This document shows positions 40,950 through 46,900 of a stretch of DNA of 64,000 nt, piece after piece. Both the position numbers and the translations under genes were made by a program. Below the pieces are notes generated by a model. It was not told the DNA's origin. It made no database searches and worked only from the letters and a program-made list of their open reading frames with translations. Every line of letters starts with the position of its first letter. Position 1 is the stretch's first letter. This DNA comes from an uncultured Flavobacteriaceae bacterium (GTDB lineage Bacteria; Bacteroidota; Bacteroidia; Flavobacteriales; Flavobacteriaceae). The stretch covers positions 12,589 to 76,588 of the forward strand of contig CBFGUI010000003.1 of the NCBI GenBank assembly GCA_965652205.1, read 5' to 3'.

Positions 40950-42170
40950 TCAGTCCACAGAATTGAATTCCTCCACGATTTCCTCGAACTCGATGCGGTA
41001 ATAGGTGCCCTTTTTCTCCGATTCCCGTTTGATGGAGCCCCGAAGTTGGCGGCTGAGGTTGTAGATCAACTTTAGGCCCAGGGAATTGGAAGTTTTCGGA
41101 CTGACCTCCTGTGGATAGCCAATTCCGTTGTCCCCAAGATAGAGTTCATAACGATTTTCCCCGATTTTTTTGACGGACACCAGGATTTTCCCATTATAGT
41201 CCTCGGTAATGCCGTATTTAAGGGCATTGGTGATGGTTTCGTTGATTATGAGCCCTAAGGGGATCACCGTGTCTATGCTGAGGTTCAGGTCTTCGATATC
41301 CAATTGGACCTTTACCCTGTCGTTGCTCCCCCGTACCGAGCGCACCAAATAATCACACAATTCCTGCACATAGGGCCTGAGTTCGATCTTGGAAAGGTAG
41401 TCGTCCCTTTTGTAGAGCATTTCATGGACCATGGCCATGGAGACCACCCGGTTCTGGCTGCTTTTGATGATACCACTTATTTTGTCATCGGAAATGGCGC
41501 GTGCCTGTAAGCTCAAGAGGCTGGATACCGTCTGAAGGTTGTTCTTGACCCTGTGGTGGACCTCCTTGAGCAGGGTCTCCTTTTCCTCAATGCGTTTTTG
41601 CACCTCATTTCGTGATTCATAGAGCTTGTGGTGGGCCTTGAGGAGGTTTCTGCCGAATACCCCCCCGAGCAGGTATACCGCAAAGGAGATGGAGAGAAAG
41701 GCGAACCAGGGCCTCATTTCCAAGGGGACCGTATTTGACGAGATCTTAAAATCTCCCATTTCATATAAAAACAACAGGGCCACCACCACCAAATTGATGA
41801 TAAGGTATAATTGTCCGAACACCCTGGTGCTCACATAGCCCGCGAACACAATGATTGCCAGGACAAAAATAAAGGGACTTTGTATCCCCCCGCTGAAGAG
41901 GGTGACCACAACGGCCGAGATCATGGACAATATGGAGGCCGTATTATAGGTGAACAACAAATTTTTATGGCTTTGGAACATCAGGGTGTTCACAAAGTTG
42001 AGAAAGGCGTAAACGATAAAGGTATAGGGAATCACCCCTTCTATGTCCAGGAAGAAAAAGCAAATAACACCCAGGATGGCAGCAATGAGGGAGGAGCTGT
42101 AATTTACCTTGAGTATCAGTGCGGTCTTGTCCTGTAAACGGTATGTATCCTTAGCAGGATTTTTTTTCAT
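40950..42170 (-). CDS. Membrane sensor histidine kinase, HisKA_2/HWE-like family
   Basis: About 6 TM helices, LLKEVHHRVKNNLQ H-box, NETITNALKY N-box, DNGIG and SLGL G-boxes. Start at ATG 42170 or 42197. Confidence 0.93.
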   Translation of the reverse strand: MKKNPAKDTYRLQDKTALILKVNYSSSLIAAILGVICFFFLDIEGVIPYTFIVYAFLNFVNTLMFQSHKNLLFTYNTASILSMISAVVVTLFSGGIQSPFIFVLAIIVFAGYVSTRVFGQLYLIINLVVVALLFLYEMGDFKISSNTVPLEMRPWFAFLSISFAVYLLGGVFGRNLLKAHHKLYESRNEVQKRIEEKETLLKEVHHRVKNNLQTVSSLLSLQARAISDDKISGIIKSSQNRVVSMAMVHEMLYKRDDYLSKIELRPYVQELCDYLVRSVRGSNDRVKVQLDIEDLNLSIDTVIPLGLIINETITNALKYGITEDYNGKILVSVKKIGENRYELYLGDNGIGYPQEVSPKTSNSLGLKLIYNLSRQLRGSIKRESEKKGTYYRIEFEEIVEEFNSVD

Positions 42171-42283
42171 GTGTTTCACCAAAATTGTGTCATCCACTGC
42201 CTATAAGTACAAGATTTAACTGCCAAGGTTGGTATAGGTAAGGAATGGGGCCCGATGGATGTATATCTAAAAATGTTTTTAGG

Positions 42284-42430
42284 GTGAACTACCCACCCAC
42301 GGCGTAGCCGATGGGTTGGGCTTCTGATTTCACAGACCTACGCTTCTTTTCAGAAGTCTTATTTGGGTCTCCATCAGTGTACTCGACCGTCCCGGCCGAG
42401 ATATTTTTCAAACCTTCTTTTAGGATATTT
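42284..42430 (-). ncRNA. Predicted TnpB omegaRNA (reRNA) scaffold overlapping the tnpB 3' end; guide is the flank starting at 42283
   Basis: CTTCT-GAAA-AGAAG tetraloop stem, CTGAT/ATCAG and GACC/GGTC pairings, and the right-end hairpin ending in TCAC. The location is established for TnpB systems; the 5' boundary is approximate. Confidence 0.7.
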
Positions 42431-43494
42431 CTACTCGCATTTATATCTCTGTCGTGTACCACACCACAAGAATCACAAGTCCATTCCCTATCTGAAAGTT
42501 TTAATTCTTGATTTATCCAACCACAATCCCCACAAGTTTTACTTGATGGATAGGAACGATTGACTTTAACAAGTTCTTTTCCATACCAATCACATTTATA
42601 TTGAAGCAATATTACAAAATTACCCCAACATGCATCGGCAATATGTTTTGATAATTTGTGGTTTTTGAACATACCTTTAACATTTAAGTCCTCTACTGAT
42701 ATTAAATCATATTGATTGACCAATTGATGAGAAACTTTGTGTAAGGTATCCAATCTACAACTTGCAATTTTCTCGTGAATCTTGGCAACTTTGAGTTTTT
42801 GTTTTTCAAACCCATTACTGCCTTTTTGTTTACGGGATAAGTGCTGTTGTGCTTTCTTTAATTGTTTTGCATATTTCTTTGTGTGCTTATTGTTTTTATA
42901 CTTTTTCCCATCCGATGTTATTACAAAATCCTTTAGACCAAGGTCTATTCCAATTTGTTTGCCGGTTTTGGGCAATTGTTCTATTTCCTGTTCTGTAAAT
43001 ATAGAAACAAAGTATTTGCCCGTTGGTGTTTTGGTAATGGACATCTTACCAATTTTCCCCCTAACATCACGGTGCAACTTTACTTTAATCTCTTCTTTAA
43101 ATTTAGGTATATGTATCTTGTTGTCTGTCAGTGTTCCAAATTGAGGTATGGTAAATGTACTCTTATGTTTCCTTGATTTGAATTTAGGAAACTGGGCATT
43201 GCCTCTAAAAAAGTTTAAAAATGCAGAATCCAAGGAGCGTAAAGCAAATTGAAGCGACTGACTATTAACTTCCTTTAACCACTTTGTTTCTTCTTTCTTT
43301 TTGAGTTTTGTCAGAGCGGCGGCTTGTTCATGGTAATTGTCAGACTTTTTATCCGCTTGATACTGTTCTTTACGTTCATTTAAAAAATGATTATAGACAT
43401 AGCGAGTACAACCAAAGTGCTTTGCAAGAAGGGTTTCTTGCTCTGCTGTTGGATATATTCTAAATTTATAGGTCTTATTCATCATTTTCATCAC
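42289..43494 (-). CDS. tnpB: RNA-guided endonuclease TnpB (Cas12 ancestor)
   Basis: YKFRIYPT N-terminus, RuvC-I GIDLG, RuvC-II VEDLN, Zn finger CGDC...CDSC, RuvC-III DRDINA; all catalytic residues present. Several possible starts between 43482 and 43494. Confidence 0.95.
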   Translation of the reverse strand: MMKMMNKTYKFRIYPTAEQETLLAKHFGCTRYVYNHFLNERKEQYQADKKSDNYHEQAAALTKLKKKEETKWLKEVNSQSLQFALRSLDSAFLNFFRGNAQFPKFKSRKHKSTFTIPQFGTLTDNKIHIPKFKEEIKVKLHRDVRGKIGKMSITKTPTGKYFVSIFTEQEIEQLPKTGKQIGIDLGLKDFVITSDGKKYKNNKHTKKYAKQLKKAQQHLSRKQKGSNGFEKQKLKVAKIHEKIASCRLDTLHKVSHQLVNQYDLISVEDLNVKGMFKNHKLSKHIADACWGNFVILLQYKCDWYGKELVKVNRSYPSSKTCGDCGWINQELKLSDREWTCDSCGVVHDRDINASRNILKEGLKNISAGTVEYTDGDPNKTSEKKRRSVKSEAQPIGYAVGG

Positions 43495-43534
43495 TTACTA
43501 TACATCAAAACTTATGCCAAAATACCGTTTTATG

Positions 43535-43542
43535 TAAATTTG
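43535..43542 (+). promoter_or_regulatory. Bacteroidota-type -7 box for tnpA inside the IS
   Basis: TAAATTTG 7 bp upstream of the tnpA ATG. Confidence 0.5.
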
Positions 43543-43549
43543 TCATGAT

Positions 43550-43912
43550 ATGTCTCACCACATCAGTACAGATCGCTCAAAACACTACTTAAAATGGCAT
43601 TTAATTTTGGTTGCCAAGTATCGTGGAAATATCTTGGTTGGTCAGTTAAATGATGATTTAAAGTCTGTCTTTCAATCCATAGCCGATAATCCGGATTTTG
43701 AAATTGAGGTGTTTGAATCAGATGTCAACCATATTCATTTTCTTATTCGCCACATACCTCGTTTGTCCATCGCTCAAATTGTTCGTAGATTGAAGCAAGA
43801 ATCCACACATCAGTTATGGTTACAACATCGTTCAACACTTCGTCGGTATTATTGGTATCGTAAAATTTTGTGTCCGGATGGGTACTTCGCTTGTTCTATC
43901 GGTGAGGCTTCA
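43550..43912 (+). pseudogene. tnpA: IS200/IS605 Y1 transposase TnpA, C-terminally truncated
   Basis: HLILVAKYR, HUH motif NHIHFL, LKQES and DGYF.CSIGEAS are present. The following helix with the catalytic Tyr and the native stop are absent, and the frame runs on to 44239 antisense to secA. Confidence 0.85.
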
Positions 43913-43939
43913 GCATCAGTGGGTTTTACGCTCCGCCAT

Positions 43940-43980
43940 ATAAAAAAAATGACAGCCCCAAAAACCGCTGTCACTTTTTA
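43940..43980 (-). terminator. Bidirectional intrinsic terminator of secA; its T-tail supplies the TTAT insertion site
   Basis: AAAAAAAA-TGACAGC-N10-GCTGTCA-C-TTTTT. Confidence 0.8.
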
Positions 43981-43998
43981 TATCACATTCAATCCTGG

Positions 43999-46900
43999 TC
44001 AATCCTCGACCAACACCCATTCCCCTTTTTCGATCAGGGGTTCGGCCTGTTTGTATTTTACGCTCTTGCTCTCCCCGGACATGATATTTTTGATGGTGAC
44101 CCTGTCGTTCCTACCAATTTTCGGCTTTTCCCTGACCACGGTCTCGGTCAACTGCTGTCTTTGGCCCTGGGTCTGTCCGGCAGCCCTGCTGCGGGCGGAA
44201 AGTTCATCACTGTTGGGGATTTCCTCCTTGGAGGTCTGAAGCTTCTCCTTGGGCCTGCTCACGGTCCTGGCCTCCTGGATTTCGTTGCTGTTCTGGGACG
44301 GAAGTTCCCCTTTGAAGAGGAAGGAAATCACTTCCTTGTTCACCTTGTCGATCATTTCCTTGAAGAGTTCAAAAGCCTCGAACTTATAAATCAATAGCGG
44401 GTCCTTTTGTTCGTGAACGGCCAATTGGACGGATTGTTTCAGTTCGTCCATTTTGCGCAAATGGGTCTTCCAGGAGTCATCGATAATGGCCAGGGAGATG
44501 TTTTTCTCAAAATCCGTGATCAATTGCTTGCCCTCACTGCGGTAGGCCTTTTCCAGATTGGTGACCACGTTCAGGGTCTTGATCCCATCGGTAAAGGGAA
44601 CCACGATCCGTTCAAAGGAATTGGATTGGTCCTCGTGTACCCTTTTGATGACCTGGAAGGCCATCGCCGCGGAGCGCTCCATCTTGTCCAGGTAAAACTC
44701 ATAGGCCGCCTTATAGACCAAATTGGCCAATTCCTGCACCCCCATCCTCTTGAACTCGTCCTCTGTGACGGGTGCGGTAATGGAGAAGAATTTGATGAGT
44801 TCGAACTCAAAGTTCTTATAATCGTCGGCCAATTTGTTGGTCTCTACCAACAGTTCGCTGGTATCGTAGATCATATTGGCAATATCCACCTTGAGCCTTT
44901 CCCCTTGGAGGGCGTGTCTTCTTCTTTTGTAGACCACCTCCCGTTGGGCATTCATGACATCATCGTATTCCAAAAGGCGCTTACGGATCCCAAAGTTGTT
45001 CTCCTCCACCTTTTTCTGGGCGCGTTCAATGGAACGGGTCATCATGGAATGCTGGATCACCTCGCCATCCTCCAAGCCCATACGGTCCATCATTTTTGCA
45101 ACTCGGTCCGAGCCGAACAAACGCATGAGGTTATCCTCCAGGGAAACATAGAATTGTGAGCTTCCCGGATCGCCCTGTCGGCCGGAACGGCCCCTGAGCT
45201 GTCGGTCCACCCTTCTGGAATCATGGCGTTCCGTGCCTATGATGGCCAATCCCCCGGCTTCCTTGACCTCAGGGGACAATTTGATGTCCGTACCCCTACC
45301 GGCCATGTTGGTCGCTATGGTCACGATACCGGATTTCCCGGCCTCGGCCACGATATCCGCCTCCTTCTTGTGGAGTTTTGCGTTCAGCACATTGTGGGGA
45401 ACCTTTCGAACGCTGAGCAATTTGGACAGCAATTCGGAAATCTCCACTGAGGTCGTACCGATAAGTACCGGCCTGCCCGCTTGGGAGAGTTTGGTGACCT
45501 CCTCGATGATGGCATTGTATTTTTCCCTTTTGGTCTTGTAGATCAAATCGTTCCTGTCATCCCGTGCAATGGGCCTGTTGGTGGGAATCTCCATGACATC
45601 CAATTTGTAGATTTCCCAGAATTCCCCCGCTTCGGTAATGGCCGTACCGGTCATACCGGCCAGCTTTTTGTACATCCTGAAGTAATTTTGCAGGGTAATG
45701 GTGGCAAAGGTCTGGGTCATGGCCTCGATCTTGACGCGCTCCTTGGCCTCGATGGCCTGGTGGAGTCCGTCCGAATACCGTCTGCCGTCCATGATACGGC
45801 CCGTTTGCTCGTCCACGATCATGACCTTGTTGTCGATCACCACGTATTCCACGTCCTTTTCAAAAAGGGTATAGGCTTTCAGCAGCTGGGTCATGGTATG
45901 GATCCTTTCGCTTTTGACGGAAAAATCCTTGAAGAGCTCTTCCTTGAGTTGGGCCTCCTTCTCGATATCCAAGCCCTGTTGTTCGATCTTGGCGATCTCA
46001 CTGCCAATGTCCGGCATGACAAAGAAATCCCGGTCCTCGTCCCCTGAGATATAATCGACCCCTTTATCGGTCAACTCGATCTGGTTGTTCTTTTCATCGA
46101 TCACAAACAACAGGTCCGCATCCACTTTGGGCATTTCCCTGTTGTTGTCCTGCATATAGAAGTTCTCTGTTTTTTGGAGCAGTTGTTTCACCCCCTCTTC
46201 ACTCAAGAACTTGATCAGGGCCTTGTTCTTCGGAAGCCCGCGGTGTACCCGGAGCAGGAGAAACCCTCCTTCCTTGCTATCCCCGGCGGCGATCAATTTT
46301 TTGGCCTCGGCCAGGACCCCGGTCAAATGCTGTCGCTGTTTGTTCACGATATCGGCCACCTTTGGGCTGAGTTCGTTGAATTCATGTCGATCGCCCTCGG
46401 GCACCGGCCCCGAGATGATCAAGGGGGTACGCGCATCGTCCACAAGGACGGAATCCACCTCATCCACTATGGCGTAATGGTGGGGGCGCTGCACCAGGTC
46501 ATCGGGGGTGTGCGCCATATTGTCGCGCAAGTAGTCAAACCCGAATTCGTTGTTGGTGCCATAGGTGATATCGGCATTGTAGGCGGCCCTTCTGCCGTCG
46601 GAATTGGGCCTGTGATGGTCTATGCAATCCACGGAAAGGCCGTGGAACTCAAATATGGGGGCCATCCATGAGCTGTCCCTTTTGGCCAGGTAATCGTTCA
46701 CCGTCACCAAATGGGCCCCCTTGCCCGCAAGGGCATTGAGATAGAGTGGGAGGGTGGCCACCAAGGTCTTTCCTTCCCCGGTCTGCATTTCTGCGATCTT
46801 CCCCTGGTGGAGGGCAATGCCCCCGATGAGCTGCACGTCGTAATGTACCATGTCCCAGGTCACTTCCTTTCCGGCGGCATCCCAGGAATTGCTCCAAACG

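Follow-up and report, generated by a model that had tools for sequence, protein, structure and literature searches.

At one point in the window (the whole stretch of DNA that was analysed, 64,000 nucleotides) the codons of a transposase gene, tnpA, run directly into one arm of the hairpin at the left end (LE) of the insertion sequence (IS) to which the gene belongs. The locus raises the question of whether this junction is real, what the element has lost there and whether such a copy could still move. A sequence-only reading had proposed that a single microhomology deletion disabled both the enzyme and its cis site, so that the copy would be immobile even with TnpA supplied in trans, while leaving TnpB intact. 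We set the element against related elements, public assemblies and contigs assembled from public sequencing runs, and weighed this proposal against several alternatives.

Extent, target site and setting of the element

The element lies between the secA terminator and a histidine-kinase (HK) gene of a Flagellimonas/Allomuricauda-like flavobacterium, with tnpB on the minus strand and tnpA divergent from it on the plus strand. Its extent and target are as follows.

42284..43939, minus strand: whole IS605-type element, 1656 bp; its top strand is the minus strand of the window, running from the LE at 43939 to the right end (RE) at 42284.
43940..43944, minus strand: target or transposon-adjacent motif (TAM), TTTAT (ATAAA on the plus strand), in the T-run of the secA terminator.

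The ends are fixed exactly because an empty-site allele exists in other strains: in contigs of runs X15 and X19 position 42283 is joined to 43940, with 1656 nt skipped and 0 shared or ambiguous letters. The strains with this IS-free secA-HK allele are ~93-95% identical in the flanks, and occupied and empty sites thus co-exist in public data. The ends also match the points at which the flanks of the related elements L043, L045, L046 and L051 diverge, and GC content is ~0.33 within the element vs ~0.5 in the flanks. The window contains one copy. From flank through element to flank, the top strand reads ...TTTTTTTTAT / ATGGCGGAGCGTAAAACCCACTGATGC...GTGGGTGGGTAGTTCAC / CCTAAAAACATTTTT. TTTAT lies 5' of every related LE (it abuts the LE directly in the window and in L001-L005, L009, L016 and L043-L051) and ...GGGTAGTTCAC closes every related RE. 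The secA-HK spacer is empty, at 150-170 nt, in ~70 of 79 related species, where it consists of the terminator hairpin, TTTTTTTAT and A(T/C)CAAAAACATA; the insertion thus belongs to one lineage, and it took the T-run of the secA terminator as its TTTAT target. The TnpB lineage to which the window belongs (P0121, 1 residue from the window TnpB) was found in the secA-IS-HK context only, in four assemblies.

IS605 of Helicobacter pylori is a member of the IS605 type, for which ISDra2 and IS608 are the mechanistic models. The window element shares with this type a Y1 HUH TnpA, a divergent TnpB (OrfB_IS605), subterminal imperfect hairpins on one strand, and insertion 3' of a fixed, conserved pentanucleotide with neither target-site duplication nor terminal inverted repeats; in its relatives the Tyr of the C-terminal helix aligns with Y132 of ISDra2. 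It differs in being a defective single copy, from which the Tyr helix, the loop and 3' arm of the LE hairpin, and the palindrome upstream of tnpA are gone. A further likeness, by motif only and to elements from a different host phylum, is to the ISGst2-like elements of Geobacillus stearothermophilus, which have the same TAM, TTTAT, and the RE motif TTCAC, two positions off the TAM. TTTAT is the experimentally defined TAM of G. stearothermophilus TnpB2, and in ISGst2-like elements the donor joint is the predicted TnpB target (Meers et al. 2023). The donor joint predicted for excision of the window copy is TTTAT joined to CCTAAAAAC.

Two further observations concern this setting. The A-run at 43942-43949, which leads from the LE to the secA terminator, is 8 nt long in the window, whereas the database version P0001, with a different read-through frame (IKKNDSPKN... 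vs IKKMTAPKT...), implies a run of 9 nt; this difference at the TAM and terminator is a homopolymer length polymorphism or an error. The host lineage belongs to a marine genus, yet it is found near-identical in rhizosphere, soil, fungus, landfill, sludge and compost metagenomes (runs X1-X14); saline habitats, shared reagents and mislabelling are candidate reasons for these habitat labels.

The left-end junction and the missing segment

Three features meet at the left end.

43550..43912, plus strand: remnant of tnpA, 121 codons long, which retains the HUH motif (HIH) but lacks both the catalytic Tyr and its stop codon.
43912..43913, no strand: deletion junction, at which 60-73 nt are absent (64 relative to L043).
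43913..43939, minus strand: LE remnant, top strand ATGGC GGAGCGTAAAA CCCACTGATGC, in which the tip and the conserved box are followed by the 5' hairpin arm alone.

The site is as the sequence-only reading described it. On the plus strand 43901-43912 (GGT GAG GCT TCA) encodes ...G-E-A-S of TnpA and abuts 43913-43923 (GCATCAGTGGG), which is the distal arm of the LE hairpin; next come TTTTACGCTCC at 43924-43934 and the tip of the element, GCCAT, at 43935-43939, so that the window's plus-strand order is GGT GAG GCT TCA / GCATCAGTGGG TTTTACGCTCC GCCAT / ATAAAAAA. The LE remnant is not a chance resemblance, since its retained 22 nt are identical to those of many independent copies.

In intact relatives GEAS is followed by PETIRQYILxQG and a stop, 0-15 nt, a GTCGCTTACAT box, a hairpin of 8-12 bp (in one example, on the tnpA-sense strand, CCCACCGAgcctaTCGGCATCAGTGGG), TTTTACGCTCC, 3-4 variable nt and TATAAA; almost all TnpA relatives from genome and metagenome collections are 133-136 aa long. 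Absent at 43912/43913 are 12 tnpA codons with the stop, the loop and the other arm of the hairpin, and a conserved box (GTCGCTTACAT; ATGTAAGCGAC) of which the sequence-only reading was unaware. The earlier reading had suggested aligning intact copies in order to size the deletion, and this could be done: anchoring on GEAS and GGGTTTTACGCT in eleven different intact or nearly intact relatives gave 60-73 missing nt, and 64 nt relative to the closest intact element, L043.

As had been claimed, the Tyr helix and the stop of TnpA are missing. A match to Pfam Y1_Tnp (PF01797, E = 2.3e-22) identifies a Y1 HUH transposase gene and covers positions 3-112 only of the 121 of the profile; homology stops at GEAS, before the C-terminal helix in which relatives carry the catalytic tyrosine. 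In the intact relative P0002 it is the Tyr of IRQYI that lines up with Y132 of ISDra2 TnpA (PDB 2XO6 has F at the Y132-equivalent position). The tnpA frame of the window stays open as far as 44239, across the LE, the terminator of secA and antisense secA, and the read-through peptide, ASVGFTLRHIKK, is translated LE DNA without a Tyr. We rejected the read-through LRHIKK as a remnant of the IRQYI helix: these residues are encoded by the conserved LE box and the TAM, and the DNA in question lies out of frame past the real stop in relatives, e.g. L001.

The cis site is broken at the same point. On the top strand the hairpin of relatives consists of CCCACTGA-T-GCC, a loop of GTA or GATA, and GGC-TCGGTGGG. 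Its arms vary among relatives by compensatory changes (CCCACCCA/TGGGTGGG, CCCACTCA/TGAGTGGG, CTCACAGG/CCTGTGGG and CCCACAAA/TTTGTGGG), and so the hairpin structure itself is a conserved feature. The window retains CCCACTGATGC, essentially the entire 5' arm, and the 3' arm is gone, as the sequence-only reading had seen; because CCCACTGATGC is kept whole, the breakpoint adjoins the hairpin loop. When folded as single-stranded DNA, all eight of the intact LEs form hairpins, at -7.7 to -12.7 kcal/mol (z -1.9 to -3.6), whereas the window LE reaches -2.3 kcal/mol (z = +1.58), a value that 194 of 200 shuffled sequences equal or surpass. The element therefore has an intact hairpin at the RE and an LE without a fold, in place of the subterminal hairpins at both ends that typify IS605-type elements. 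A 10-nt inverted match within the element (GGAGCGTAAA, 43234 vs 43925-43934) was set aside as chance, ~1.7 such matches being expected in 1.9 kb.

The mechanism that had been proposed for the deletion is not supported by comparison with relatives. The hexamer TGAAGC, taken to serve as both tnpA sequence and hairpin apex, is simply GCT TCA, the Ala-Ser codons, read on the other strand, and relatives encode the Ala-Ser of GEAS as GCA TCA or GCA AGT. The hairpin that had been drawn, CCCACTGATGC-TGAA-GCATCAGTGGG, does not correspond to that of the relatives, which has the GTA/GATA loop and different arms. There is 0 nt of exact microhomology at the junction with L043- or L016-like ancestors (TTCA/CCAG vs ATCG/GCAT), a comparison limited by the databases, whose best intact relatives are 87% identical in TnpB and 82-85% in TnpA, too distant for an exact reconstruction of the ancestral junction. 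Slippage at TGAAGC would leave one hexamer, and TGATGC and TGAAGC both survive side by side.

It is unlikely that the junction was made by several successive events, e.g. by a frameshift or truncation of tnpA and then a separate deletion of the hairpin, or by microhomology-mediated slippage and then a 6-nt duplication (GCTTCA-GCATCA). Other independent lesions can be demonstrated in this copy (a 55-nt deletion and 7 substitutions), and GCATCA occurs both in tnpA (Ala-Ser) and in the hairpin arm of many relatives, a repeat that could promote slippage. However, slippage at GCATCA would leave a single hexamer where the window has GCTTCA and then GCATCA, one junction only is visible, and no intermediate form was found in any run or assembly.

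Other lesions of tnpA and the state of tnpB

The remaining features of the element are as follows.

43486..43549, no strand: shortened tnpA-tnpB intergenic region, without the 55-nt conserved palindrome ATTGTAAAAGTTTCCGTCTTCGGGTAAAAAACTTTCACAAT (pairwise alignment gap 55 nt).
42289..43485, minus strand: tnpB, with its stop inside the RE; the product is 398 aa long if translation starts at the ATG (43485) and 401 aa long if it starts at the GTG (43494).
42284..42325, minus strand: RE, an intact imperfect hairpin (top strand CCCAACCCATCGGCTACGCCGTGGGTGGG) with terminal TAGTTCAC.
42264..42283, minus strand: putative omega-RNA guide segment, in the flank immediately beyond the RE on its 3' side (top strand CCTAAAAACATTTTTAGATA).

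The active multi-copy element to which L043 belongs (TnpB P0126, loci L043-L052) provides the closest intact comparison. It has the same LE box, hairpin 5' arm, RE and TTTAT, and its TnpB and TnpA are 87% and ~80% identical to those of the window, but it is 1774 bp long as against 1656 bp, carries the 64 nt and the 55 nt absent from the window, encodes a TnpA of 133 aa, and is found with identical TnpB in at least four different flanks, whereas the window copy occurs in one context.

In L001, L002, L003, L004, L006, L009, L043 and L051 the palindrome ATTGTAAAAGTTTCCGTCTTCGGGTAAAAAACTTTCACAAT (~55 nt), or a variant, immediately precedes the tnpA ATG, where it could serve tnpA as a regulatory 5'-UTR or operator hairpin. 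Within the coding sequence, the window TnpA deviates at 7 of 60 near-invariant columns (those at least 95% conserved among 105 full-length TnpA relatives), against a mean of 0.94 among the relatives, one of which is as high. The seven changes are Y>H, N>D, C>W, S>P, Y>H in FLIRY, and W>C and S>P in LWSDG. Loss of the palindrome and these substitutions together make the tnpA module a multiply damaged pseudogene. The claim that one deletion disabled enzyme and cis site thus stands in so far as a single gap removes both, but that gap is not the only lesion. The tnpA ORF, of 229 aa in the window and 184 aa in one database version, should be annotated as a pseudogene running into antisense secA.

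Decay at the C-terminus of tnpA is frequent also among the related loci compared here, as a 2-nt frameshift in L029 and L033 and a truncation in L020. In L019, L038 and L039, which occupy different sites in a Flammeovirgaceae MAG, the same 19-nt insertion frameshifts tnpA before the Tyr helix while the hairpins are intact; evidently this is a non-autonomous lineage that is still spreading. In the TnpA-like proteins P0078, P0079 and P0091 everything after YYWY(R/Q)KL is replaced by a shared C-terminus (RIDKLNSHIIFTIWVCCHHIFWI...) without the Tyr helix. The tnpA remnant of the window itself shows a strain polymorphism, C>T at 43804.

The other half of the element is in a different state. TnpB, like that of other IS605-type elements, combines helix-turn-helix, RuvC and zinc-finger parts and is divergent from tnpA: it matches the Pfam domains HTH_OrfB_IS605, OrfB_IS605 and Cas12f1-like_TNB, and it keeps the RuvC D-E-D residues (IGIDLG, VEDLN, HDRDINAS) and both zinc-finger CxxC pairs. 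The 3' third of tnpB and the RE align without indels to L043, the loop being the only difference in the RE hairpin. Because TnpB still has its RuvC D, E and D and the element its RE, the protein is not of the domesticated, nuclease-dead TldR-like kind. The earlier description of TnpB as intact holds for its ORF and catalytic motifs, but not for its conserved sites as a whole, because the lineage is off-consensus at 11 of 250 conserved columns where relatives average 2.6 and 1 of 116 is as high; judged by this excess of changes, TnpB may also be non-functional. Among its substitutions are Y58H, G138E, R207K/Y208H, S293C and F318S. Look-ups of the exact window TnpB from three start codons gave no match, whereas the cluster representative P0121 did match. 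The database TnpB differs by one residue, K to E, owing to the polymorphism 43296 T>C, which changes KLKKKEE to KLKKEEE, the form present in most runs and in P0121.

Retention of tnpB and the RE without a working tnpA is what is seen in non-autonomous tnpB-only elements and PATEs mobilised in trans, and it is reported to be the commonest state of tnpB genes (Meers et al. 2023). Those elements keep both ends folded, as in the tnpB-only examples L017 and L034 with intact LEs, whereas the LE hairpin of the window is broken. With that LE and a single genomic context, the window copy does not fit among the trans-mobilisable tnpB elements and PATEs, in which both ends are conserved and foldable.

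Placement of the guide segment at 42264..42283 follows the known architecture of TnpB and its omega-RNA (Karvelis 2021 PMC8612924; Meers 2023), by which these 20 positions would form the guide; no Rfam family matched within 42100-44100. In three studies, metatranscriptome contigs span tnpB and continue past the RE and 42284 into the flank, with little or no coverage of tnpA, although expression is only weakly reflected in contig depth and some of the signal may be carried-over DNA. Pairwise dN/dS is ~0.1 for both tnpA and tnpB with dS saturated against all available relatives, and this value stems from the long period during which the element was active, not from the time after the deletion.

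A separate observation concerns 42730-42879, a block of ~150 nt within tnpB where nucleotide conservation goes well beyond what the protein requires. Its identity is 93-96% to L043 and still 79-84% to L009; where the amino acid is the same, 24-26 of 30 codons agree. It is shared exactly with other IS copies, its depth reaching up to ~1100x in X2. The block may be an internal promoter, an RNA element or a gene-conversion tract.

History, mobility and meaning

The reading that we favour, with a probability of roughly 0.85, is that a single IS605-type copy inserted at the secA terminator and that a ~64-nt internal deletion then made it defective both in trans and in cis. The copy would have entered one flavobacterial lineage 3' of the TTTAT at the end of the terminator. 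Later, the deletion fused tnpA codon 121 (...GEAS) to the outer arm of the LE hairpin, with one breakpoint at the top of the 5' arm, beside the loop, and removed the Y1 Tyr helix, the tnpA stop, the ATGTAAGCGAC box, and the loop and 3' arm of the hairpin that TnpA must bind. The order of the lesions may have been either, in that the tnpA module would have decayed further afterwards or would already have begun to, with the 55-nt palindrome lost and seven near-invariant residues changed. The tnpB gene, the RE and the omega-RNA-coding region are still intact in structure and, judging by the metatranscriptome contigs, are transcribed.

[quoted passage not shown] 2023). With no active TnpA and no LE structure, the window copy would therefore undergo neither excision nor copying by peel-and-paste transposition. 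Immobility even with TnpA supplied in trans, as the sequence-only reading had it, is very probable on account of the lost LE structure.

This bears on whether the copy could be mobilised by a related TnpA from a second IS copy, acting on the LE remnant and the intact RE. The TAM, the LE tip and the GGAGCGTAAAA box all survive in the window copy, and a possible source of TnpA exists: the LE of a second, related IS, with an intact hairpin and again 3' of TTTAT, is found in L133:1-60 and in short contigs of X1, X2, X3, X5 and X17, where it abuts the terminator of a susD-like gene. The depth of the L133 flank is like that of the window in four metagenomes (L133 flank/window 11.2/11.3, ~11-12/13-17, 12.3/9.7 and 16-23/18), and this second copy is probably in the same genome as the first. 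Its junction unitig is shallower than the flank, and the insertion is possibly polymorphic. However, it is the folded subterminal hairpin to which TnpA binds, and elements with mutated ends fail to excise (PMC3201880; Meers 2023); folding gave no alternative structure for the window LE, and the window TnpB lineage is known at one locus only. A source of TnpA may thus share the genome, yet the window copy is without a cis site, and mobilisation in trans is therefore not expected; we consider it very improbable.

We give next to no credence to an assembly artefact, i.e. to the assembler having collapsed the hairpin and neighbouring sequence of an intact end. It is true that de Bruijn graphs break up at hairpins and at repeated IS copies, that contigs end at the shared segment 42731-42843, and that the evidence for the junction is from assembled contigs as opposed to raw reads. 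Those contigs come, however, from at least six public runs and three further ENA assemblies. Logan contigs of X1, X2, X3 and X5 (four DNA runs from four studies) span 43500-44300 gap-free with 0-2 SNPs; the fused junction is also present in contigs of the RNA/DNase libraries X24 and X26 and of runs X15 and X17; and it is identical in the ENA assemblies L040-L042, made with SPAdes and MEGAHIT. The far side of the element, 41800-42760, was matched exactly in contigs. In the species-representative genome collection the fused junction was not found. The missing 64 nt are mostly non-palindromic coding and spacer sequence, and hairpins were not systematically collapsed, because the intact LE of the other IS copy was assembled correctly in the same runs. 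The objection that the earlier reading had raised against itself is thus answered at the level of contigs.

Its second objection, that active members of the clade might naturally have a short TnpA running into half a hairpin, has a few short database proteins in its favour (P0003, 121 aa; P0074, 111 aa; P0109, 106 aa) but is scarcely credible, since TnpA is 133-138 aa long with an IRQYILxQG-type end in 105 of the 120 best hits, a full hairpin is present in all multi-copy elements examined (the P0126 element and a Chitinophagaceae MAG with at least 15 LE copies), and relatives maintain that hairpin by compensatory changes.

The window copy is a real, ordinary and very probably immobilised fossil of the IS605 type, a defective member by descent. 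That one gap cost it both a trans-acting and a cis-acting function is slightly unusual. In two other remnants the LE is broken within a few nucleotides of the hairpin loop. In L035 (~3637, reverse strand; Saccharibacteria MAG) tnpB and the RE are intact and ~700 nt of unrelated DNA replaces tnpA, and L025:3902-3990 (Woesearchaeota MAG) is a mini-remnant of ~70 nt in which half an LE is fused to an RE. Loop-adjacent breaks in the window, in L035 and possibly in L025 hint that the LE hairpin is a deletion hotspot that generates dead elements, and the hairpin may have promoted the deletion described here.

If TnpB is active, its sole target would be the IS-free allele, TTTAT + CCTAAAAACATTTTT..., which is present in related strains. 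It is conceivable, but improbable, that the immobilised TnpB and omega-RNA persist as a fixed, single-locus homing or allele-drive nuclease directed against the IS-free secA-HK spacer (TTTAT + CCTAAAAACATTTTT). Were this so, IS-free alleles such as those in X15 and X19 would be cut and converted after recombination or DNA uptake, and the locus would represent an early stage of TnpB domestication without a transposase.

For the most part the finding has little importance beyond annotation, which should flag the element as a defective copy of the IS605 family. It does provide a clean natural double knockout, in cis and in trans, with tnpB, the RE and the guide region left in place and, because IS-bearing and empty alleles are both present in public metagenomes, a usable test of whether TnpB is retained and active once transposition has become impossible.
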